Assembly (NCBI GenBank): GCA_013791585.1
Contig: VMTK01000005.1
Coordinates: forward strand, 18,484 to 82,483
Source of the DNA: Candidatus Falkowbacteria bacterium
GTDB taxonomy: Bacteria > Patescibacteriota > Patescibacteriia > Patescibacteriales > VMTK01
Reading direction: 5' to 3'
DNA: 64,000 nt
The notes under the pieces were generated by a model. The model was not told the origin of the DNA, made no database searches, and saw only the letters and a program-made list of their open reading frames with translations. Of this stretch, positions 4,843 to 58,258 are shown one piece after another (within the stretch, counting starts at the first letter, position 1; each line of letters starts with the position of its first letter). The position numbers and the translations under genes are program-made.

Positions 4843-6441
4843 TTAAATAAGGCTTCTTCCCGTCATTTCTTTCGGCTTCGGCAATCCCATGATTTTTAAT
4901 ATGGTCGGCGCTATGTCAGACAATATGCCTTGCGGCTGTATCAAGCTTAAATCCCCTCCCGGAACATCTTGGCTGCCCAATCTGCGGCCTTCAAATTGCT
5001 TGCCCGCCACAATAAACGGCACCGGACTGGCTGTGTGCTCCTTGTCAATCATGCCTGTCTGCATATTAAACATTACTTCAGCATTTCCGTGATCGGCAGT
5101 GACGATAATTACTCCGTCTTTTGCCAAAACGCTCTTTACTGTCTTGCCAAGGCATTTATCCACTGTTTCAATTGCCTTAACCGCTGCCGGAATATTGCCT
5201 GTATGCCCTACCATGTCCGCATTGGCGAAATTAATAAGAATAAAATCGTATAATTCTTCTTCTATCGCTTTAACAACTTTATCCGTAACTTCTATGGCGG
5301 ACATCTCCGGCTTTAAATCATATCTGTCAACATGCGGAGAAGGAACCAGCGCGTGATCCTCGCCCTTGCTTTTTTCCTCGCGGCCCCCGTTAAAAAAATA
5401 AGTTACATGGGCGTATTTTTCAGTTTCCGCTATGCGCATCTGCTTTAAATTTTTGGAAGCCAATATTTCTCCCAAAGTATTGTTTAAAATTTCAGGCGGG
5501 AAAGCTATTGCCGCGGGCAAATTTTTTTCATATTCAGTAAAACAAACAAAACGCAGATCTTTCAAATACTTTTTTCTGCTGAATTTGTCAAAACCGGGCA
5601 AAATAAAAGATTTTGTAATCTCCCTGGCCCTATCCGCCCGGTAATTAAAAAATATCACGCTGTCCGTTGATTCTATCAAAGAAACCGGCTGGCCGTTTTC
5701 CGTAATTACGGTTGGCGCGAATTCTTCGTCGTAAATTTTGTTTTGATAGCTTTTTGTAATTGCGCTTGCAACGTCATCGCTTTTATTTCCAATGCCCTCT
5801 GTCATTGCCAAGTATGCTTTTTCCACCCTATCCCAGCGATTATCTCTGTCCATCGCGTAAAACCTGCCGCAGACAGTGGCTATCCTGCCAGTACCATATT
5901 CCGCCATGCTTCGCTCAAGATCCTTGACAAAATTAATCCCGCTATTATAAGGAGTATCTCTGCCGTCTAAAATAACATGGACAAAAACTTTGCTTACTTT
6001 CTGCTCCTTGGCTAAAACCATCAGCGCCTGAAGATGCTCAAAAGACGCATGCACGCATCCGTTTGATGTTAATCCTATCAAATGCAGCTTGGATTTATTA
6101 TTCTTGGCATGTTCGCAGGCATCTACCAGCGCTTTATTTTTATAAAAACCGCTATCGCTGATAGCTTTGTTGATGCGGGGCAATTCTTGGTAGAGTATTC
6201 TGCCCAAACCCATATTTAAATGGCCTACTTCGCTATTGCCGGCTTCGCCCCATGGCAGCCCGACTGCTTCGCCTGAAGCGCGCAATGTCATGGATGGGTA
6301 TCTGGAAACCAATTCATTAAAAATCGGCGTCTTCGCCAATGTCACGGCATTGCCGCTGTAAGGCGGGGTAATCCCCCATCCGTCCAAAACAACCATAACT
6401 ACCGGTTTAGGACGATTAGATTGTAATTGGCTGTCTATCAT
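4843..6441 (-). CDS. gpmI: 2,3-bisphosphoglycerate-independent phosphoglycerate mutase (paralog 1)
   Basis: VVMVVLDGWGI...NSEVGHLNMGLGRILYQ and the metal-binding C-terminal half ...VTADHGNAEVM... identify iPGM. Confidence 0.9.
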   Translation of the reverse strand: MIDSQLQSNRPKPVVMVVLDGWGITPPYSGNAVTLAKTPIFNELVSRYPSMTLRASGEAVGLPWGEAGNSEVGHLNMGLGRILYQELPRINKAISDSGFYKNKALVDACEHAKNNKSKLHLIGLTSNGCVHASFEHLQALMVLAKEQKVSKVFVHVILDGRDTPYNSGINFVKDLERSMAEYGTGRIATVCGRFYAMDRDNRWDRVEKAYLAMTEGIGNKSDDVASAITKSYQNKIYDEEFAPTVITENGQPVSLIESTDSVIFFNYRADRAREITKSFILPGFDKFSRKKYLKDLRFVCFTEYEKNLPAAIAFPPEILNNTLGEILASKNLKQMRIAETEKYAHVTYFFNGGREEKSKGEDHALVPSPHVDRYDLKPEMSAIEVTDKVVKAIEEELYDFILINFANADMVGHTGNIPAAVKAIETVDKCLGKTVKSVLAKDGVIIVTADHGNAEVMFNMQTGMIDKEHTASPVPFIVAGKQFEGRRLGSQDVPGGDLSLIQPQGILSDIAPTILKIMGLPKPKEMTGRSLI

Positions 6442-6456
6442 ATCAATTTTTATATT

Positions 6457-8085
6457 TTATTTTATAAGACTTTTCCCCGTCATCTCCCGCGGCTTTTCCC
6501 GGCCTATTAATGCTAATATAGTCGGCGCTATATCGGCTAAAACGCCGCTTTTTTTTAATTTAATTTTATTTTTTAATTTTTTATTAACTATAATAAACGG
6601 CACCGGGCTGGATGAATGCTCCGTGTCTATCTCGCCTGTTTCCAAATTTATCATCTCCTCAATATTGCCATGATCGGCGGTGATCAGAACTGTGCCTTCA
6701 AGCTCTAAATAAGCATTGACAATTCTGCTTAAATGCTTGTCAATATGCCGGCAGCACTCTATCCCCGCCTCAAGATTCCCGGTATGCGCGACCATGTCGG
6801 GAGCGGCAAAATTTAAAACAGTAAAATCATATTTCCAACCTCTCCCCTGTCGCTTCGCTCCCCCCCCTCTCCTGATTAGGATAGGGGGCTGAGGGGTGAA
6901 GTTTTTAATTACCGCGCCAGTCAAGCCGGCTGAATTCATTGCCGGAGTTTCATCGTACGATCTTACATTAGGCGACTCAAGTATTATTCTGGACTCTCCG
7001 GCCACGGGACGCGCGTATCCGCCATTAAAAAAATAAGTGACATGAGAATGCTTTTCCTTTTCCGCTATATACAGCTGCTTTAAATCGCGCAATGCCATGG
7101 GCAAAGTTGCTTTTAGGTCAGCGCTGGGATACGCGGATAAAATACTGTCTAAATCCGGCCCAAAATCAGTCATAGCAGCGAATTTTAAATCCTTTAGGAC
7201 TTTCTGGCGCTTAAAAGCTCCCGGATTAATTTTATTAAAGTCATGCTGGACAAAAGCTTTGGCAAGCTGCCTGGCTCTGTCCGACCTTAGGTTGAAAAAA
7301 ATCACGCTGTCGCCGTCATTTATTCTGGGCAATTGCCTGCCATTGCTTTCTATCACATATGGCTGGATAAACTCATCGTTTTCGCCGCTGTTATAAGCTT
7401 TGGTTATCGCGTCCTGCGGGCTTTTGGCTTTTTTCCCCTTACCCAGTACCAAAGCATTATAAGCCTTTTCCGTGCGCCCCCATTTTTTCTTCCTGTCCAT
7501 GGCGTAAAATCTTCCCATAATCGTCGCTACGCGCTCATTTATTAAATAATCTCTTTGAACCGACTCTATTAATTTAAGAGCGGCGTATTGCGGGGAATCG
7601 CGTCCGTCGGTAAATAAATGCAGATAAACCTTTTTTACGTTATATCCTCTGGCTAATGTTACAAGCGCCAGCAGATGATCAGGATCGCTATGCGCGCTCA
7701 TGCCGTTGGAAAGCATGCCCATTAAATGCAGGGCTGATTTATTTTTCTCCACATGCTTGATGGCTTCAAGAAAAGCCGAGTTTTTAAAAAATGTTCCGTC
7801 ATTTATTGTTTTGCAAATTTTAACCGCGTCTTGCTCAACCACCCGCCCCGCCCCTATGTTAATATGCCCCGCCTCGCTATTCCCATCCTGCGCCGGAGGC
7901 AAGCCAACGCATTTCCCGTAAGCGCAAAGTTTTGCGCTTGGGTAATCCTTTATTATCTTATCTAAATAAGGAGTTTTTGACAATGCAATGGCATTGCCAC
8001 TGCTCGGCTTGGCGATCCCCCAGCCGTCCAAGATGATTAGTATCATTGGGAGATTATTGTTTTGATTTTTTTGTTTTATTGACAT
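6457..8085 (-). CDS. gpmI: 2,3-bisphosphoglycerate-independent phosphoglycerate mutase (paralog 2)
   Basis: LPMILIILDGWGI...NSEAGHINIGAGRVVEQ...ITADHGNIEEM is iPGM. The longest ORF starts at 8181, but its first 32 codons are built from the 8-nt repeat and overlap the eno C-terminus, so I place the start at the internal Met (MSIKQKNQ) at 8085. It contains an in-frame GC-rich palindromic insertion at 6841-6900. Confidence 0.8.
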   Translation of the reverse strand: MSIKQKNQNNNLPMILIILDGWGIAKPSSGNAIALSKTPYLDKIIKDYPSAKLCAYGKCVGLPPAQDGNSEAGHINIGAGRVVEQDAVKICKTINDGTFFKNSAFLEAIKHVEKNKSALHLMGMLSNGMSAHSDPDHLLALVTLARGYNVKKVYLHLFTDGRDSPQYAALKLIESVQRDYLINERVATIMGRFYAMDRKKKWGRTEKAYNALVLGKGKKAKSPQDAITKAYNSGENDEFIQPYVIESNGRQLPRINDGDSVIFFNLRSDRARQLAKAFVQHDFNKINPGAFKRQKVLKDLKFAAMTDFGPDLDSILSAYPSADLKATLPMALRDLKQLYIAEKEKHSHVTYFFNGGYARPVAGESRIILESPNVRSYDETPAMNSAGLTGAVIKNFTPQPPILIRRGGGAKRQGRGWKYDFTVLNFAAPDMVAHTGNLEAGIECCRHIDKHLSRIVNAYLELEGTVLITADHGNIEEMINLETGEIDTEHSSSPVPFIIVNKKLKNKIKLKKSGVLADIAPTILALIGREKPREMTGKSLIK

Positions 8086-8125: not shown

Positions 8126-9460
8126 TTAATTTGTTTTTGTGTTTTCCGTGTTTTTGTGTTTTTGTGTTTCAACATCTTCAATCTCCATCAACCGATTATA
8201 CTTAGCCAATCTCTCACCGCGCGACAATGATCCCGCCTTGATATAATCAGCGCCGATCGCTACCGCCAAATCAGCTATGAAATCATCGCAAGTCTCGCCG
8301 CTCCTGTGAGACGCCATTACTTTATAATTATGCTTTTGGGCCAATTTAACGCATTCAATTGTTTCAGTCAATGTGCCTATTTGGTTCGGCTTTATTAAAA
8401 TAGCGTTAGCCGCCCTGTCTTTCAGCCCGGCGCGCAAACGGGCAGTATTTGTCGTGAATAAATCATCTCCTATAATCATCATTTCATCCCCCAGCTCCCG
8501 CGTCAGCTCGCTCCATCCCTCCCAATCATCTTCCGCCAATCCGTCTTCAATGGAAATTATGGGATATTTCCTAAACCATTCATAATATAAATTTATTAAA
8601 GTAGCGGAAGTAAAATTCGCGCGGTCTAATTTAAAAATATATTTCTTGGTTTCTTTATTGTAAAGCCCTGAAGAGCCGACATCAATTCCAATGCCGAAAT
8701 CTTTTCCCGGACTATAGCCGGCGTTAACTCCCGCCGCCATAATAAGCTCAATCGCCTGAATGCTGGAAACAATATCCGGCGCGTAGCCGCCTTCGCTGCC
8801 AACATCAGTATCAAAGCCGGCTTTCCTTAAAACCCGCCCCAATTCATGAAATATTTCCGCGCCCATCCTAACCATTTCCGCAAAACTTTTAATTTGAGCT
8901 CCCCTCTCCCGTGAGGCGCGAGCGGGAGAGGGGTTGGGGGTGAGGGGAATTATCATGAATTCTTGAAAATCCAAATTAGTATCCGCATGTTTGCCGCCGT
9001 TAAAAATATTAAAAGATGGAGTTGGCATCGCATAACGCGTAACGCGTAACGCATAACACTTATTTATATATTCATATAATTCTTGGTTTTTAGACATGGC
9101 CGCGGCGCGGGCGCAGGCAAAGGATACGCTTAAAATAGCGTTGGCGCCTAATCTTTTTTTGTTTTTCGTCCCGTCCAGTTTTATCATTGTTTCATCTATC
9201 TTTTCTTGTTCGCTTGCATCAACTCCTTTTAATTCAGGCCCTATTTTTTCTTGAACATTTTTTACCGCTTTCAGCGCTCCCAAGCCGCCGTAGCGCTTAT
9301 TGCCATCGCGCAATTCCAACGCTTCATGAATTCCCGTGGAAGCGCCGGAAGGCGCGCTGGCTTTGGCGATTATGCCATTATCCAGAATAACTTTTGTTTC
9401 AATTGTCGGATTGCCGCGCGAATCCAAAATTTCGCGGGCGGTTATTTGTTTGATTTTCAT
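8126..9460 (-). CDS. eno: Enolase
   Basis: MKIKQITAREILDSRGNPTIETKVILDNGIIAKASAPSGASTGIHEALELRDG is canonical enolase. It carries two in-frame repeat insertions (palindromic element 8898-8952; TTATGCG heptamers 9020-9055) and a C-terminal tail encoded by the 8-nt repeat. Confidence 0.95.
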   Translation of the reverse strand: MKIKQITAREILDSRGNPTIETKVILDNGIIAKASAPSGASTGIHEALELRDGNKRYGGLGALKAVKNVQEKIGPELKGVDASEQEKIDETMIKLDGTKNKKRLGANAILSVSFACARAAAMSKNQELYEYINKCYALRVTRYAMPTPSFNIFNGGKHADTNLDFQEFMIIPLTPNPSPARASRERGAQIKSFAEMVRMGAEIFHELGRVLRKAGFDTDVGSEGGYAPDIVSSIQAIELIMAAGVNAGYSPGKDFGIGIDVGSSGLYNKETKKYIFKLDRANFTSATLINLYYEWFRKYPIISIEDGLAEDDWEGWSELTRELGDEMMIIGDDLFTTNTARLRAGLKDRAANAILIKPNQIGTLTETIECVKLAQKHNYKVMASHRSGETCDDFIADLAVAIGADYIKAGSLSRGERLAKYNRLMEIEDVETQKHKNTENTKTN

Positions 9461-10614: not shown

Positions 10615-10712
10615 TTTCTTATTTTTATTATTTTATTATTTTATTATTTTTATTATTTTATTATTTTTATTATTTTATTATTTTTATTATTTTATTATTT
10701 TATTTCACAATC
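10615..10712. repeat. (ATTATTTT)n microsatellite, about 12 units
   Basis: Direct tandem repeat ttattttattatttt... in the gap between the pgk stop and the upstream gene. Confidence 0.9.
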
Positions 10713-11992
10713 CCTTTCAGCCCGGGCATTTTTTCTCCGCTTAAAAAGGCCAGCATGGCTCCTCCGCCGGTTGATACCCAGTCAACATAATCAATCATTT
10801 TTGTCTGCCTTAAAGCTTCCACTGTTTCCCCTCCTCCAACTATTCCAAACGCGCGGCCCCGCGAACGGGACGCCACTGCGCGGGCGATTGACAAAGTGCC
10901 ATGCTTGAAATTGTCTTGTTCAAACATTCCCATCGGCCCGTTCCAAACTATAGTATTGGCTTTTTTTATAAAACCGGAATACAATCCTATGGTTTTGGGG
11001 CCGATATCTAAAATCTTCTCGCTCTTTTTTACATCGTACGCGTTTTTAACTTCCGGCTCTTTATTTCCTTTGCCTTTGCCGACCACAACATCTATCGGCA
11101 AAATAATATTTGCGCCGCCGCCGCGATTTTTATTTTTCAATGCTTTCGCGAGCGTAACATTTTTTTCATCCGCTGCCGACTTGCCGATTTCCATGCCGTG
11201 AGCCGCGAAAAAATTATTAGCCAAGGCCCCGCCGATTAAAATATGGCTCGCTTTCCTGCGCAGTTTTTTTATTAATTTTATTTTAGTGTTAATTTTAGCT
11301 CCGCCGATTACCACAATCAGCGGCTTTTTAGGAAACAGGACTTTGCTTAAATTTTCCAGCTCTTCTTGCAGAAGCAGGCCGGCATACGAAGGTAAATATC
11401 TTTTTATCGCGCTTAATGAAGCATGCTTCCTATGGCTTGCGGCAAAAGCGTTATTAACATAAACCCCGCGCCTTTTAGGCAGAATATTTTTAATATTGTT
11501 AGACAGCTGTCCAAAAGGCGCGGGGTGAATATCAGCCAAACGAGATAATCGCTTGGCGAATTTTTTATCATTTTGCTCTTCCTCTTTATGAAATCTAAGA
11601 TTTTCAAGAAGCATTATTTCCCCTTCTTTTAATTTACCTGCTTCTTCCTCTGTCTTTTTCCCTATGCAATCAGGAACAAATTTTATTCTCTTGCCCAAAA
11701 TCTTGCCCAGCCGAACAGCAATCGGCTTAACAGAATGTGTTTTTGTGTTTTTGTGTTTTTGTGTTTTTGTGTTTGCGCGCGGCCGCCCCAAATGCGTTGC
11801 GATAATTATCTTGCATTTATGCCTCAAAAGAAAACGGATAGTCGGCAAGCAAGAAATTATCTTATAATCATCCAATATATCCGACATCCGACATCCGACA
11901 TCCGACATCCGAAATGGAACATTAAAATCAGCCCGTAAAAAAACTCTTTTGCCTTTTATGTTTTTGGCGTTTCTAATTGATTTAATCTTCAT
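10700..11992 (-). CDS. pgk: Phosphoglycerate kinase
   Basis: KGKRVFLRADFNVP, LENLRFHKEEE and C-terminal GGGAMLAFLSGEKMPGLK are pgk motifs. It carries in-frame repeat insertions RMSDVGCRMSDI (CGGATGT heptamers, 11876-11925) and TKTQKHKNTKT (8-mers, 11736-11775). Confidence 0.9.
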   Translation of the reverse strand: MKIKSIRNAKNIKGKRVFLRADFNVPFRMSDVGCRMSDILDDYKIISCLPTIRFLLRHKCKIIIATHLGRPRANTKTQKHKNTKTHSVKPIAVRLGKILGKRIKFVPDCIGKKTEEEAGKLKEGEIMLLENLRFHKEEEQNDKKFAKRLSRLADIHPAPFGQLSNNIKNILPKRRGVYVNNAFAASHRKHASLSAIKRYLPSYAGLLLQEELENLSKVLFPKKPLIVVIGGAKINTKIKLIKKLRRKASHILIGGALANNFFAAHGMEIGKSAADEKNVTLAKALKNKNRGGGANIILPIDVVVGKGKGNKEPEVKNAYDVKKSEKILDIGPKTIGLYSGFIKKANTIVWNGPMGMFEQDNFKHGTLSIARAVASRSRGRAFGIVGGGETVEALRQTKMIDYVDWVSTGGGAMLAFLSGEKMPGLKGIVK

Positions 11993-26942: not shown

Positions 26943-28142
26943 TTATGCGGCAATAATCCCCCCTCCCAGCACTTCATCCTCATTATTATAATTCGCATGC
27001 GCGTTATTTGTAGCAGCGCGTCTAATCCCATAAAATACAACGCTTTGGCCCGGCGTTACAGCCCTTTGCGGCTGAGAAAACGCTACAGCCACCGAGTGGC
27101 TCTTAAAGCCACTCGGTGGCTTCGTAACTTTACACTTAACCGGCTTGTGCCTGTATCTGATAACTGCTTGGCAGGACAACGGCAGTCTCGGCTCTTTGCC
27201 TGAAATCCAGTTCACATCGCCGGCAATCAATTCTCTGCTGTACAAAACAGAATCATCCCTATCACTAACCACATATAGCGTATTGGTTTTATAATCGCAT
27301 TTGGCAGCATAAAAAGGCCCGATGCCGCCAATTTCCACTCCCTTTCTTTGCCCGATAGTGTAAAGCGGCAGGCCCTGATGCTCGCCGATAACCTCCCCTA
27401 ACCCCTCCTTGGCAAGGAGGGGAACGCGGAGCGACTCCGCCATTTTTCTCCCCTTACCAAGGGGAGATGCCCGAAGGGCAGAGGGGTAAGGGGTGAGGGC
27501 AACAATCGGCCCTGGTTTTAACTTGATATGCTCGCGCAAAAAATCATTATGATCGCCTTTTAAAAAACAAACATCCTGGCTTTCTTTTTTTACATAAGGC
27601 AATTTTGCTTTGTCCGCGATTTTTCTAACTTCCTCTTTCGTGTACTCGCCCAAAGGAAATAAAACCCGCGCCAGCTGTTTCTGCGTCAAATTATAAAGAA
27701 AATAGCTCTGATCCTTGCCCTCATCTTTCCCGCGATATAACTTATAAATCAATTCTGTTTTTGTGTTTTTGTGTTTTTGTGTTTTTGTGTAGTGTCCCGT
27801 TGCCAAAAAATCCGCGCCGATCTCGCGAGCGCCCTTGAGTAGCGCGCCAAATTTAATAAGCCGATTACACCTTGCGCAAGGATTCGGCGTTAAGCCGCGA
27901 GCATAACTTTCTAAAAAATAATCAATCACTTCTTTTTTAAATTGGTCGGCGTAATTTACCGGATAAAATTTAACGCCTAATTTGGCGCAAACGCGGCGCG
28001 CGGCCTGCTCGTCATCGCTATTATTTGCCAACCGCATAAACATGCCGATAACTTCATATCCTTGTTTCTGCAATAAAAAAACCGCCGCCGAAGAATCAAC
28101 TCCGCCGGACATGGCGATCACAACTTTTAAACATTTAGGCAT
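26943..28142 (-). CDS. mnmA: tRNA-specific 2-thiouridylase MnmA
   Basis: PP-loop SGGVDSS and CARCNRLIKFGALL identify MnmA. Two in-frame insertions: a roughly 110-nt GC-rich palindromic element (27393-27502) and 8-nt repeats (27764-27791; TKTQKHKNTKT). Confidence 0.9.
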   Translation of the reverse strand: MPKCLKVVIAMSGGVDSSAAVFLLQKQGYEVIGMFMRLANNSDDEQAARRVCAKLGVKFYPVNYADQFKKEVIDYFLESYARGLTPNPCARCNRLIKFGALLKGAREIGADFLATGHYTKTQKHKNTKTELIYKLYRGKDEGKDQSYFLYNLTQKQLARVLFPLGEYTKEEVRKIADKAKLPYVKKESQDVCFLKGDHNDFLREHIKLKPGPIVALTPYPSALRASPLGKGRKMAESLRVPLLAKEGLGEVIGEHQGLPLYTIGQRKGVEIGGIGPFYAAKCDYKTNTLYVVSDRDDSVLYSRELIAGDVNWISGKEPRLPLSCQAVIRYRHKPVKCKVTKPPSGFKSHSVAVAFSQPQRAVTPGQSVVFYGIRRAATNNAHANYNNEDEVLGGGIIAA

Positions 28143-48805: not shown

Positions 48806-50380
48806 TCACTTCACCCAAAATTCTTTCTTCAGTTCGCTGTCATCTTCCATTTTTCTGTCTTCAATTTTTTCTTTGGCTTGGCCGCGCAATTCTTTTAATT
48901 CCATTTTATTCAATTCTTGGCTTCTGTTTTCTAAATATTCTTTATTATTCAGATCAGGATCATCAACCACTTCGGACAGCAAAACATCCAAAATAGCGCC
49001 GATTTTAGGACTTGGCTGGATTTTTAATAATTTCATTAATTCGTCTCCGTTTATTTTCAGCATTTTTACGGACAGCGGATCCTGGCGCACTTTTTCCATC
49101 ATATATTCCAGATGGCGGAGCTTATACGGCTTGGCTTTCGGCACGCCGGAACCGAGCCGGTCCGCTATCCGCAGATCAATCAAGTCTTTCAAGTTTTCTT
49201 CTCCTACTTTTTTAATCAAGCGCCGCACCGAGCTGGCTGTCACTTCATCAACATTATAATAAAACATGTGGTTGCGTATCAAGGCCGCGACTTTTTCAAT
49301 CTCATCATTGGAAAACTTCATCCGGCTCATAATCTTCTTGGCGATTTTCGCGCCTACTATGTCATGATTATAAAAAGTGGCGCCGCCGTTGATAATTTTT
49401 TTTGTCTGCGGCTTGGCAATATCATGAAGCAGCGCGGCAAGCTTGACGCGCCAATCATTGCTTGGACAGAATTTCAATGACAATACGCAATGCCTGAAAA
49501 CAGAATGAATATGATGCTTGCATTGCCCCACCCCCACTCCTCTTTCCAGCTCCGGCATAATATACTGAAGCAATTTATTTTGATGCAAAAACATTATGCC
49601 TTCGTAAGCTTTATTAGACTTTAATATTTTAATCAACTCATCTTTTATTCTTTCATTGGCAATGAATTTTATGCCGCCGGCCATTTTCTTTATCGCCCGC
49701 TCGGTTTTCGGCTCAATGTCAAAATTCAACTCGCAAGCCAGGCGAATCGCCCGCATCATGCGCAAAGCGTCTTCCTTAAACCTGTCGGACGGCTCCCCTA
49801 CCGCCCTGATAATCCTTTTTTTAATATCTTTCTGCCCGCCGAATAAATCAATAATTTGAAAATTATCATTTTTAACTCCCTTCTCCCGTGAAGCGATAGC
49901 GGGAGAGGGGCTGGGGGTGAGGGCAACAGCCATTGCGTTTATCGTAAAATCGCGCCTGGACAAATCCTTCTCCAAACTATCCTCAAATCTAACCTCATCC
50001 GGGTGCCTCCTGTCAGAATATCCCTGTTCACTGCGATAAGTCGTCACCTCAACAACTGTCTTGTTTTCGTCCTCCTTCGCTAATGCTTCGGCGGATAAAT
50101 GTTTTCGTGTTTTCGTGTTTTCGCGTTTTCGCGTTTTCGTGTTTTCGCGTTCTACGGGAATTATCACAGTCCCAAAAACATTCTCATACTTTCCATCAGG
50201 AAAAATCTTTAAAATTTCTTCCGGCTTGGCATTAGTGGTAATGTCCCAATCTTTAGGTATAATGGAGCGCAATAAATCACGCACGCATCCGCCAACCGCA
50301 TACGCTTCATGGCCTGCTTGCTCCAGTTTGTCTATTATATTTTTTATATATTCTGGTATTTTCATATTAAAACTATACAA
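48806..50380 (-). CDS. cca: CCA-adding enzyme / tRNA nucleotidyltransferase with HD domain
   Basis: N-terminal AGHEAYAVGGCVRDLLRSIIPKDWDITT (polymerase-beta NTase) and an HD domain (LHDIAKP...). In-frame 8-nt repeat (50099-50157, ENTKTRKRENTKTRKH) and palindromic element (49874-49925). Confidence 0.85.
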   Translation of the reverse strand: MYSFNMKIPEYIKNIIDKLEQAGHEAYAVGGCVRDLLRSIIPKDWDITTNAKPEEILKIFPDGKYENVFGTVIIPVERENTKTRKRENTKTRKHLSAEALAKEDENKTVVEVTTYRSEQGYSDRRHPDEVRFEDSLEKDLSRRDFTINAMAVALTPSPSPAIASREKGVKNDNFQIIDLFGGQKDIKKRIIRAVGEPSDRFKEDALRMMRAIRLACELNFDIEPKTERAIKKMAGGIKFIANERIKDELIKILKSNKAYEGIMFLHQNKLLQYIMPELERGVGVGQCKHHIHSVFRHCVLSLKFCPSNDWRVKLAALLHDIAKPQTKKIINGGATFYNHDIVGAKIAKKIMSRMKFSNDEIEKVAALIRNHMFYYNVDEVTASSVRRLIKKVGEENLKDLIDLRIADRLGSGVPKAKPYKLRHLEYMMEKVRQDPLSVKMLKINGDELMKLLKIQPSPKIGAILDVLLSEVVDDPDLNNKEYLENRSQELNKMELKELRGQAKEKIEDRKMEDDSELKKEFWVK

Positions 50381-51745: not shown

Positions 51746-53119
51746 TTATGCGTTACGCGCCGCAATCCACTCTTCGCCCTGTCTAACTAATAATTCTTTC
51801 GCCCTAAGCGGCTCGGACATAATTTCTTTAACAATTTTCTCCATGCGCATGCCTTGAGAACCTTTAATTAAAATCAAATCGCCTTCATTGATTCTATCCT
51901 GAATAAATTTCCCGGCATCCCCGGCGGCCGCAAAATGAAATATGTTATCAGGAAGCATTCCTGCTTTTTCCGCTCCTCCGGCAATATCGCGCGATCTTTC
52001 TCCGACAACTATTAATTTGTCAATCCCGGATTCAAAAACCAGGCGGCCGGCTTTTCTGTGCTCTTCTTCGCTAACGCTGCCCAGCTCAAGCATGTCGCCT
52101 AAAACCGCGAACTTTCTGGCTCCGCTTGCCAAAGGTATTTTGTTTAACATATCCAGCGCCGACGCCAAAGACTGCGGAGACGAATTGTAAGTGTCATCAA
52201 TAATTAAAGTATTTTTTATGCCCGGTATCAAATTCATTCTTCCTGTTGGAGATTTGAATTCTGACAGCGCTTCTGCTATTTCCGTTAAATTTAAGCCATA
52301 AGCTATGCCGACAGCCGCGGCGGACAAGGCGGCATAAACTGCGGCGCGGCCTATCACATTAGGCAATAAAATATTGGCTGATGAATTATTATGGCTGATT
52401 TTAAAGCTAATGCCGGCTAATTTTCCTGCCATGCTTTCCTTCGGTTCATTAAGATTGGAAAAATTAAAGACTAATTCCCGCGCTCTTACGCCGGCGCCGC
52501 TGTTAAAGCCATAGGTTAAAATTTTAGCTTTGCTTAATCTGGCAATTCGCATCACTTTTTTATCATCATAATTCAAAACCGCCCAGCCGGATTTCGGCAA
52601 AGCTTCAATCAGCTTGCCTTTTTCTTTTTGTATATTCTCTATCGTACCGAAAAACTCCAAATGGACAGGCCCTATTGCCGTAAGCACCCCTGTTTTACTT
52701 TTGGCTATTTTATTTAAATAATCCATGTCCCCGGGACGGTCTACGCCCATTTCCAAAATTAGAATTTTAGGATAATTTTTATCTTGAATTAAAATTAATT
52801 TTAGCGCTTTCCAGAAAACAAAAAACCAGCCAAGAATGGATTTGCCCGGAGATTCGGAACCGATAACGGTTAATGGCGCGCCGATTTCGTTGTTATAGTT
52901 TTTTATATTTTTTCGCGCGCTGAATTTTGAAGCAAGCACGGTATAAATAGCTTCTTTGGAACTTGTTTTGCCAACGCTTCCCGTGATGCCGATAATATCC
53001 GGCTTATACTTGGCTAAAATAATCTTGGCTAAAATTTTTAGTTTTAACTGGATTAATTTTTTCATATTTAAAATAAAAAAATAAAAAAAGTAATAAAATA
53101 ATAAAAACATAGATGTCAT
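51746..53119 (-). CDS. murF: UDP-N-acetylmuramoyl-tripeptide--D-alanyl-D-alanine ligase
   Basis: GITGSVGKTSSKE, NYNNEIGAPLTV and LEMGVDRPGD are Mur ligase motifs. It lies in the dcw cluster. The true start is probably MKKLIQL, downstream of the longest-ORF start. Confidence 0.85.
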   Translation of the reverse strand: MTSMFLLFYYFFYFFILNMKKLIQLKLKILAKIILAKYKPDIIGITGSVGKTSSKEAIYTVLASKFSARKNIKNYNNEIGAPLTVIGSESPGKSILGWFFVFWKALKLILIQDKNYPKILILEMGVDRPGDMDYLNKIAKSKTGVLTAIGPVHLEFFGTIENIQKEKGKLIEALPKSGWAVLNYDDKKVMRIARLSKAKILTYGFNSGAGVRARELVFNFSNLNEPKESMAGKLAGISFKISHNNSSANILLPNVIGRAAVYAALSAAAVGIAYGLNLTEIAEALSEFKSPTGRMNLIPGIKNTLIIDDTYNSSPQSLASALDMLNKIPLASGARKFAVLGDMLELGSVSEEEHRKAGRLVFESGIDKLIVVGERSRDIAGGAEKAGMLPDNIFHFAAAGDAGKFIQDRINEGDLILIKGSQGMRMEKIVKEIMSEPLRAKELLVRQGEEWIAARNA

Positions 53120-53150
53120 ATTATTTTATTATTTTATTATTTATGATATT

Positions 53151-55470: not shown

Positions 55471-55497
55471 AAGATTTATTATTTTATTATTTTATTA

Positions 55498-55660
55498 TTT
55501 TCGCGTTTTCGTGTTTTCGTGTTTTCGTGTTTTTGTGTTTTCGTGTTTTGAGGCGAAGCCGAGTGTTTTCGTGTTTTGAGGCGAAGCCGAGTGTTTTTGT
55601 GTTTTGAGGCGAAGCCGAGTGTTTTCGTGTTTTGAGGCGAAGCCGAGTGTTTTTGTGTTT
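55498..55660. repeat. Tandem repeat block: about five 8-nt units followed by four 28-bp units (gaggcgaagccgagtgttttYgtgtttt)
   Basis: Direct repeats with no spacers lie between ftsL and rsmH. Confidence 0.9.
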
Positions 55661-56624: not shown

Positions 56625-56629
56625 AACTC

Positions 56630-56750
56630 GTTACGAGTTATGCGTTATGCGTTATGCGTTATGCGTTATGCGTTATGCGTTATGCGTTATGCGTTATGCG
56701 TTATGCGTTATGCGTTATGCGTTATGCGTTATGCGTTACGAGTTATGCAC
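56630..56750. repeat. Long TTATGCG heptamer array (about 15 units)
   Basis: gttatgcgttatgcg... lies immediately upstream of rsmH. Confidence 0.95.
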
Positions 56751-57731: not shown

Positions 57732-58258
57732 TTTTAAAATAATAAAATAATAAAATAATAAATTTTATGATGATTCATTTTGCATTTTTAATTTTGAACT
57801 GCTTAAGACCCAGGAGAAGCTTGACTGACTAAAAAATGTCTATCAAGCCCCTTCTTTACCTTAACCCCGCACCTTTTAAATGATTTACAGATTATAATTT
57901 TAATCAAATTGTTAGAAATTTCTTAATAAAATAAAAGTAAAGTTAACCGCAGAATAAACATTAAAATTTTTATCATTTAAAAGGTGCGGGGTTAATTATT
58001 AAAATTCGCTCCTGATTTTGGCCCATGAAGCATAGGCCATTCTCTGCGCCGATTTTACATCGGACTTTTTTGGGTTAGCGCGCAAAGTCTGGGCTAACCT
58101 GAATAATTTTTATTTTTATTTTAATATTTCTTATTTCTTGCCTTCACCACCATTCCCCACTTTTCACCAATCTTATTTAATCATACACCATTTTTACGCT
58201 GAAGTCAACCACTATGCGACACTTAACGATTGGCTAATGTAAGCTGAATTATGCAATA

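Follow-up and report, generated by a model that had tools for sequence, protein, structure and literature searches.

Octamer arrays at five loci

The window analysed here is a 64,000-nt stretch of a Candidatus Falkowbacteria genome (contig VMTK01000005.1), a member of the Candidate Phyla Radiation (CPR), and it carries tandem arrays of an 8-nt unit both inside genes and between them. Its encoded proteins likewise mark the source as a Patescibacteria (CPR) bacterium. Nearly every gene here is encoded on the minus strand, on which the unit reads ACACAAAA; on the plus strand it reads TGTGTTTT. Arrays of this family, (ACACRAAA)n in the minus-strand reading, lie at five loci: the 3′ end of the enolase gene eno, the interiors of pgk, mnmA and cca, and the spacer between rsmH and an ftsL-like gene (Table 1). 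A 16-mer (two-unit) probe with up to two mismatches allowed yielded 13 matches, all at these five loci, compared with 0.12 expected and 0/100 shuffles. An earlier reading made from the letters of the window alone (the sequence-only reading) had proposed that one octamer occupies both coding and non-coding contexts. All five of the arrays it listed are present, with small shifts in their limits: the mnmA array starts at 27756 (previously given as 27764-27791) and the spacer array ends at 55549 (previously 55540).

Because 8 and 3 are coprime, any sense frame of an array yields the cyclic peptide TQKHKNTK, and three units make up 24 nt. The earlier suggestion that three units restore the reading frame and encode K/T/H/N/Q-rich peptides is arithmetically correct, and translation of the genic arrays gives the peptides that had been listed. 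The octamer is also a common word in its own right. It occurs 36 times outside arrays on the sense strand, which ranks it roughly in the top 5-10% of 8-mers, and single-copy seeds are therefore plentiful. In the spacer, the 28-nt higher-order repeat that contains the GC-rich module M1 begins immediately past the rsmH stop codon; the extra module of this repeat is also given as GAGGCGAAGCCGA.

The array at the 3′ end of eno had further been assigned to an alternative N terminus of the downstream gene gpmI-2. This assignment is probably wrong, as NCBI gene models and the paralogue begin with MSIKQ, at position 8085, with the array 47 nt upstream. Some gene callers accept a long gpmI-2 open reading frame (ORF) of 572 aa that starts inside the eno-tail array, which is probably an over-extension. 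The two gpmI paralogues lie in tandem at 4843-6441 and 6457-8085 and share a 92-nt stretch with 77% identity (family D13). In a sister species (L012, 5082-5163, corresponding to window position ~6444), the paralogues are separated by a 70-nt palindromic insert (CTTAGGGCTTAG...CTAAGCCCTAA) that the window lacks.

Table 1 Coordinates of octamer arrays, related tandem repeats and the M2 hairpin module in the window (TRF, Tandem Repeats Finder)
Feature	Position	Strand	Unit and copies	Encoded peptide or context
Octamer array in pgk	11736-11774	-	ACACAAAA x4.9, perfect, 39 nt	RANTKTQKHKNTKTHS; encodes NTKTQKHKNTKT in loop after HLGRP motif
Octamer array in mnmA	27756-27790	-	x4.4, perfect	HYTKTQKHKNTKTEL, TKTQKHKNTKT
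Octamer array in cca	50100-50151	-	x6.5, ACACGAAA/GCGAAAAC variants	ERENTKTRKRENTKTRKH
Imperfect octamer array, eno 3′ end	8132-8169	-	x4.6	Final 14 residues ETQKHKNTENTKTN; stop codon 8126-8128
Intergenic octamer array, rsmH-ftsL spacer	55498-55549	-	x6.5; ACACGAAA, ACACAAAA and GCGAAAAC units	
28-nt higher-order repeat	55535-55660	-	x4.5; two octamer-like units plus 13-nt GC-rich module M1 (TCGGCTTCGCCTC)	
Second octamer family	55475-55501	-	AATAATAA x3.4	Directly upstream of ftsL-like start codon; abuts ACACRAAA array
Heptamer array in pgk	11879-11912	-	GTCGGAT x4.9, in frame	RMSDVGCRMSD
Intergenic heptamer array upstream of rsmH	56629-56748	-	CGTTATG on plus strand; x17 by TRF	
Hairpin module M2, in cca	50070-50099	-	TTTATCCGCCGAAGCATTAGCGAAGGAGGA, 30 nt	LSAEALAKED; splits cca octamer array in phase
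Remnant octamer unit in cca	50062-50069	-	CGAAAACA	Beyond M2

Periods of 7 and 8 nt dominate the repeats of the window

The octamers are part of a wider repeat landscape. Exact tandem arrays of at least three copies occur at period 7 (n = 9) and period 8 (n = 8) and at no other period between 6 and 14, with a Markov-3 expectation of 0. When imperfect arrays are included, there are approximately 44 arrays of period 7 or 8, divided among coding sequence (15), gene edges (7) and intergenic DNA (22). The window is 83% coding, and at least half of the arrays fall in the 17% that is non-coding, which amounts to an intergenic enrichment. The unit families that recur are ACACRAAA, AATAATAA, GTCGGAT, CGTTATG and AAATTTG-like.

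Further AATAATAA arrays are found at 10623-10704, 53119-53142 and 57735-57762, and this family sits directly before start codons or just past the pgk stop codon. The ftsL-like gene, which one such array precedes, has no obvious Shine-Dalgarno sequence ahead of its start. AAATTTG/TTTGAAA heptamer arrays occur as intergenic inverted pairs (20571-20599/20623-20654, 22821-22850/22873-22901 and 3434-3467/3476-3504) that form long imperfect hairpins between co-directional genes and may act as terminators or in regulation.

Genic arrays are insertions in loops and termini

Solved homologues lack the segments that the genic arrays encode, which marks these as lineage-specific insertions; they occupy loops or termini. 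Alignment of the phosphoglycerate kinase (PGK) with that of T. maritima (1VPE) leaves two gaps of 7 residues: one coincides exactly with KTQKHKN, which follows the HLGRP motif, and the other falls at MSDVGCR, which is encoded by the GTCGGAT heptamer array. Most CPR PGKs are without either array-encoded segment. In an AlphaFold model of the protein, residues 23-43 and 70-85 are coil with predicted local distance difference test (pLDDT) values below 50, the latter segment lying between strand 61-65 and helix 89-99; the model is of moderate quality (mean pLDDT 65) and was used only to call the inserted segments low-confidence coil. The MnmA array adds 5 aa relative to Escherichia coli MnmA (2DER), residues 72-104 of the CCA-adding enzyme have no counterpart in 7otr, and homology to solved enolases stops at residue 429-430, with the array encoding the remaining tail of the protein.

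The PGK loop after HLGRP differs among other CPR lineages. It carries (CAGAAAA) x4.9 in one (L117), a degenerate CACGCAA heptamer in another (L119) and no array in most. The presence of different arrays in the same loop suggests that permissive loops have been colonised repeatedly. Elsewhere in pgk (11112-11129), an 18-nt insertion that encodes NRGGGA is built on a run of GGC triplets. Sister species L012 lacks this insertion, which is a recent in-frame gain.

Genic arrays keep their length while intergenic arrays vary

The array sequences are identical in NCBI metagenome-assembled genomes (MAGs; GCA_018899775.1 and relatives) and in ENA, JGI and Logan assemblies. Because these independent assemblies reproduce the arrays base for base, the arrays are not artefacts. 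An assembly or sequencing artefact could be suspected from the several contigs of other assemblies that end at or near arrays, and from one MAG contig (L010) that joins unrelated sequence at an octamer array. However, the reading frames are intact and MAGs of sister species from other studies retain the arrays, and we consider an artefactual origin exceedingly improbable. The L010 junction itself was set aside, as recombination is indistinguishable there from chimeric assembly.

The genic arrays are uniform across strains. The PGK protein is identical on 10 contigs and has no indel in a strain of 99.4% identity, the mnmA array is identical on 6 contigs, the cca product measures 519 aa in two assemblies, and in the 90%-identity clusters of PGK and enolase the full-length members are of equal length. 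This uniformity extends to sister species, the nearest other species being GCA_043802685.1 (labelled Ca. Falkowbacteria) and GCA_022013035.1. The eno tail array is identical in sister species L012 (~89% identity), and no indel of at least 4 nt occurs anywhere in eno or gpmI between the window and the sister species. In sister species L114 the cca array is of equal length and differs at 6/54 positions, matching the gene-wide identity of 88.5%. The mnmA array is 45 nt in sister species L013 compared with 36 nt in the window, a difference of 9 nt (one unit plus 1 nt) that preserves the frame.

In contrast, intergenic arrays differ by whole units between close relatives. Strain L007 is near-identical to the window, with just 2 single-nucleotide polymorphisms in 3.3 kb of flank, yet in the rsmH-ftsL spacer it has five 28-nt units where the window has four, two octamers where the window and the other assemblies have six, and four AATAATAA units where the window has three. 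The CGTTATG heptamer array upstream of rsmH has 14 full units in the window and 6 in L006, between identical flanks, although the shorter array may be an assembly collapse and is used with that caveat. The sequence-only reading had proposed active expansion of the arrays, to be examined by comparing copy number across strains. That comparison upholds expansion for the non-coding arrays, and finds the in-frame arrays unchanged in length.

The same reading had offered that these are contingency loci, at which slippage of 8-nt units toggles genes on and off or alters downstream expression. Consistent with this possibility, a unit of 8 nt does not amount to whole codons, arrays occupy pgk, mnmA, cca and the eno tail and also precede ftsL, as the placement of phase-variable repeats would have it, and the arrays upstream of ftsL and rsmH vary between strains, such that modulation of downstream expression is conceivable. 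However, the genic arrays are short (4-6 units) and uniform in length in all assemblies, and they are kept into sister species, where the sole change in length is the frame-preserving 9 nt in mnmA. Hypervariable copy number that would give ON/OFF frames was not found in the genic arrays among the assemblies compared (10 contigs for pgk, 6 for mnmA and at least 2 for cca), and the cca array evolves at the gene-wide rate. As judged from Pfam and PDB matches, none of the host genes is a surface, host-interaction or restriction-modification gene; the hosts encode essential single-copy housekeeping enzymes (PGK, enolase, MnmA and the CCA-adding enzyme). The uniform length of the genic arrays across strains, an outcome that the sequence-only reading had itself named as refuting, leaves the contingency proposal unsupported for the coding arrays, which are stable across the assemblies compared and do not act as on/off switches, and we regard it as very unlikely overall.

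Strains also differ in gene content downstream of the gene for a peptidyl-prolyl isomerase (~44458-47400). One variant (L122) has helix-turn-helix, DUF5655 and EcoRV-like endonuclease genes there, and another (L123) has holin and Bac_transf genes.

Occurrence of the arrays in other genomes

A scan with the ACACRAAA unit, one genome per species, found arrays of at least three units at no fewer than 103 loci, often several per genome; the taxonomic counts are lower bounds. Among the matches listed, to which the counts in this paragraph refer, the taxa include many CPR lineages, Saprospiraceae, Chitinophagales, Flavobacteriia, Acidobacteria and Gemmatimonadales. Of the 108 arrays, 39 fall within a sense ORF of at least 150 aa and in no antisense one, and for 13 the reverse holds. 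Selection against the antisense reading, FCVFVFLC, which is hydrophobic, could produce such a sense excess. The other exact arrays in the matched loci likewise peak at periods 7-8. We found no description in the literature of such repeats in CPR/Patescibacteria.

Could the arrays be selected functional elements? In that case their A/C-rich unstructured sequence would serve as translation-enhancing leaders or protein binding sites, and the K/T-rich loops would be selected linkers. Arrays of AATAATAA and ACACRAAA do lie directly upstream of start codons in the dcw operon, the spacer RNA is unstructured, the genic arrays have been kept over ~10% sequence divergence, and the sense bias spans phyla. 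These points are offset by the unrelated units, or none, found in the PGK loop of other lineages, by substitutions in the cca array that accumulate at a neutral, gene-wide rate (non-synonymous ones included), and by the absence of any Rfam family match. Furthermore, the lethality of out-of-frame deletions explains the retention of genic arrays equally well. We therefore hold a selected function to be quite improbable.

In the Rfam search of the window, made at the gathering threshold and at E ≤ 1, no family overlaps an array or module, and only two tRNAs pass the threshold. A structured RNA in the rsmH-ftsL spacer was considered and dropped, as its predicted fold is no more stable than those of shuffles (z = -1.4). 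Separately, a near-perfect 74-nt hairpin (46828-46901) adjoins a tRNA gene (46903-46973) and has only sub-threshold miRNA-like Rfam matches, on both strands.

Relation to known repeat systems

Heptanucleotides are the most abundant class of long simple-sequence repeats (SSRs) in bacteria, and polymerase-register slippage has been proposed for them (Mrazek, Guo & Shah 2007, as relayed in PMC4679880 and PMC4692102). The arrays here resemble long SSRs with 5-11-nt motifs, as that class is outlined in these two articles, in that 7-8-nt arrays are far above expectation (17 exact arrays at periods 7-8 compared with 0 expected), are enriched between genes, fall into several unit families in one genome and differ by whole units between relatives. 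The class has been described mainly from large GC-rich genomes of non-pathogens (PMC4679880, PMC4692102), whereas the genome here is a small, AT-rich CPR genome. A further departure from the class as outlined there is the density of ~44 arrays in 64 kb, one third of them in frame in genes, essential enzymes included.

The closest parallels in distribution are the cyanobacterial heptanucleotide and TAACTGA repeats of Beggiatoaceae, Cyanobacteria and Bacteroidetes, in which one unit likewise occupies many loci in distant phyla with no known transfer mechanism (PMC4679880). As here, those repeats often stand immediately ahead of start codons, contigs are prone to break at them, and they occasionally enter ORFs, where they encode 7-residue peptide repeats (PMC4679880). 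The unit sequences here are different, and 8-nt units are among them. Moreover, the sense orientation of TAACTGA contains stop codons and nearly all of its arrays are intergenic (PMC4679880), whereas ACACRAAA has no stop in any sense frame and is found within genes.

The contingency loci of pathogens such as Haemophilus and Neisseria (PMC8262952, PMC2651432) share with the arrays a unit that is indivisible by three, a position in or upstream of ORFs, and slippage that changes copy number. Unlike these loci, the genic arrays here are length-invariant, short and in essential housekeeping genes, and only the intergenic ones vary. The tandem repeats of Borgs (PMC9879509) are similar in being A-rich perfect repeats in intergenic DNA and ORFs, with partial flanking units, that add hydrophilic disordered segments; the array segments here are indeed hydrophilic, form low-pLDDT coil in PGK and fall in gaps relative to solved homologues. 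However, the length of genic Borg units is a multiple of three, and they encode perfect amino-acid repeats (PMC9879509), whereas units here are 7 and 8 nt, the frame is regained only every three units or by partial units, and the same unit occurs at many loci.

Hairpin modules and a GC-rich palindrome

A 30-nt hairpin module, M2, interrupts the cca octamer array. Removal of M2 from cca rejoins the octamers in phase, with GAAAACA directly abutting CGAAAACA. The module is found at the same octamer-unit position in three genes: cca (in the window and in L114), nusA (L029) and a membrane-protein gene (L100), where L029 and L100 are from the sister species. In its canonical 28-nt form (ATCCGCCGAAGCTTTAGCGAAGGCGGAT), M2 is predicted to fold into a stable hairpin (-14.2 kcal/mol, z = -3.3) and is nearly invariant in at least 107 distinct metagenomic contexts (loci L128-L246), mostly without octamers. 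Some of these copies immediately follow a tRNA gene, and others belong to hairpin clusters that recur. No Rfam family matched M2. A resemblance to Whalefall-1 was rejected as weak (25 bits against a gathering score of 37 bits); it lies in a flanking metagenomic context of M2 and does not occur in the window. A general link between M2 and short arrays is likewise not claimed, given a nearby array in 11/107 contexts compared with 5.7% in the random control. The smaller module M1 adjoins or interleaves with octamers in the window spacer and also in L047 and L100.

A distinct GC-rich palindromic element (CTCCCCTCTCCCG...CGGGAGAGGGG TTGGGGGTGAGGGG) lies in frame in eno (8882-8949), cca (49859-49926) and mnmA (~27477-27560), where it encodes peptides of the LTPNPSPARASRERG type, which solved homologues lack (families D17 and D18). 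In sister species L114, the cca loop that corresponds to window positions 49859-49926 has (AAGATAC) x3 plus the hairpin ATCCCGCAATATTATGCGGGAT instead of this palindrome. Inverted-repeat units stand in frame at unrelated loci both for M2 (three genes) and for the GC-rich palindrome (eno, cca and mnmA).

In-frame palindromes have a precedent. Ogata and colleagues are said to have described, in 2000, Rickettsia palindromic elements, a dispersed repeat inserted in frame into housekeeping genes. These elements are palindromic units of 100-150 nt. The repeats in the window are like them in placing repeat-derived peptides in frame in surface loops of conserved enzymes; M2 behaves in this manner, and the presence of the GC-rich palindrome in three housekeeping genes is behaviour of this type in a CPR genome. 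Unlike the Rickettsia elements, the octamers are tandem arrays, and those in pgk, mnmA and eno have no palindromic component.

These modules raise the possibility that the arrays are themselves parts of a dispersed modular insertion element, in which octamer arrays and GC-rich hairpins (M1, 13 nt; M2, 30 nt) spread by copy-and-paste or site-targeted insertion and slippage acts only later. The in-phase interruption by M2 at one unit position in cca, nusA and the membrane-protein gene, the interleaving of M1 with octamers at three loci (the window spacer, L047 and L100), the number of metagenomic contexts that hold M2, the exchange of contents in one cca loop between the window and its sister species, and the recurrence of the same units at many loci all speak for this explanation. 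However, no hairpin module, palindrome or shared flank was found at the pgk, mnmA and eno arrays, neither conserved flanks nor target duplications were seen at any of the five octamer arrays, and M2 is weakly associated with short arrays, as the control comparison above indicates. In addition, no transposase or other enzyme is linked to the arrays, and the abundance of single-copy seeds makes independent origin plausible. On balance we find this explanation rather unlikely.

A probable origin by slippage, with filtering by the reading frame

We consider it probable that the ACACRAAA arrays are one family of the long SSRs with 7-8-nt units that pervade this genome, grown by slippage and filtered in genes for reading frame and hydrophilicity. 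Repeated local birth with slippage is favoured because the arrays in the PGK loop differ by lineage and octamer seeds are abundant. According to this model, an A-rich word that is common on the coding strand would become duplicated, and the duplication would enlarge by replication slippage with a strong preference for 7-8-nt registers. Arrays in non-coding DNA would go on expanding and contracting. Survivors in genes would be rare, as they would require a total length that is a multiple of three, a permissive surface loop or terminus, and a hydrophilic sense reading (TQKHKNTK rather than FCVFVFLC). Once an array is fixed in a gene, a single-unit change would be a lethal frameshift, such that the array would be frozen and would decay by point substitution like ordinary coding sequence. 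The K/T/Q/H/N peptides would then be tolerated disordered loops with no demonstrated function.

Several observations weigh against this account. The same units recur at many loci, and all 8 exact octamer arrays belong to two unit families, for which local slippage is insufficient. The hairpin module of 30 nt at an identical octamer position in three unrelated genes is unaccounted for by slippage. The perfect arrays of pgk and mnmA could be young, or could have been homogenised by another process. Furthermore, the comparison was made at the level of assemblies, which could conceal low-frequency copy-number variants in genes, the shorter heptamer array of L006 could have arisen by assembly collapse, and neutrality of the encoded peptides is assumed.

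The in-phase M2 insertions thus leave room, if only a modest amount, for a second, insertional process that operates in addition to slippage. A bolder and less probable proposal is that the 7-8-nt arrays and the small hairpin modules together constitute one sequence-targeted insertional system, in CPR and possibly in other phyla that bear ACACRAAA arrays at several loci. Under such a system, hairpins may home to a fixed octamer position, or array-plus-hairpin cassettes may be copied between loci, and permissive loops of essential proteins and operon spacers may be remodelled time and again as a result. If this proposal is true, the system would be a previously undescribed way for streamlined genomes to gain protein insertions.

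The repeat class itself is already known. What stands out is how densely a CPR genome is packed with the arrays, that they persist in frame in essential enzymes, and that hairpins are inserted in phase. For annotation, the arrays serve as a warning, in that they attract repeat-derived tails, extended ORFs (the long gpmI-2 model being one) and breaks between contigs. For the biology of these organisms, the findings indicate that simple repeats with non-triplet units can be accommodated in the essential enzymes of a streamlined CPR genome, and they offer a concrete origin for some of the lineage-specific protein insertions that are typical of CPR proteomes. Should a targeted process lie behind the hairpins inserted in phase, the locus would also give access to a new small mobile element.

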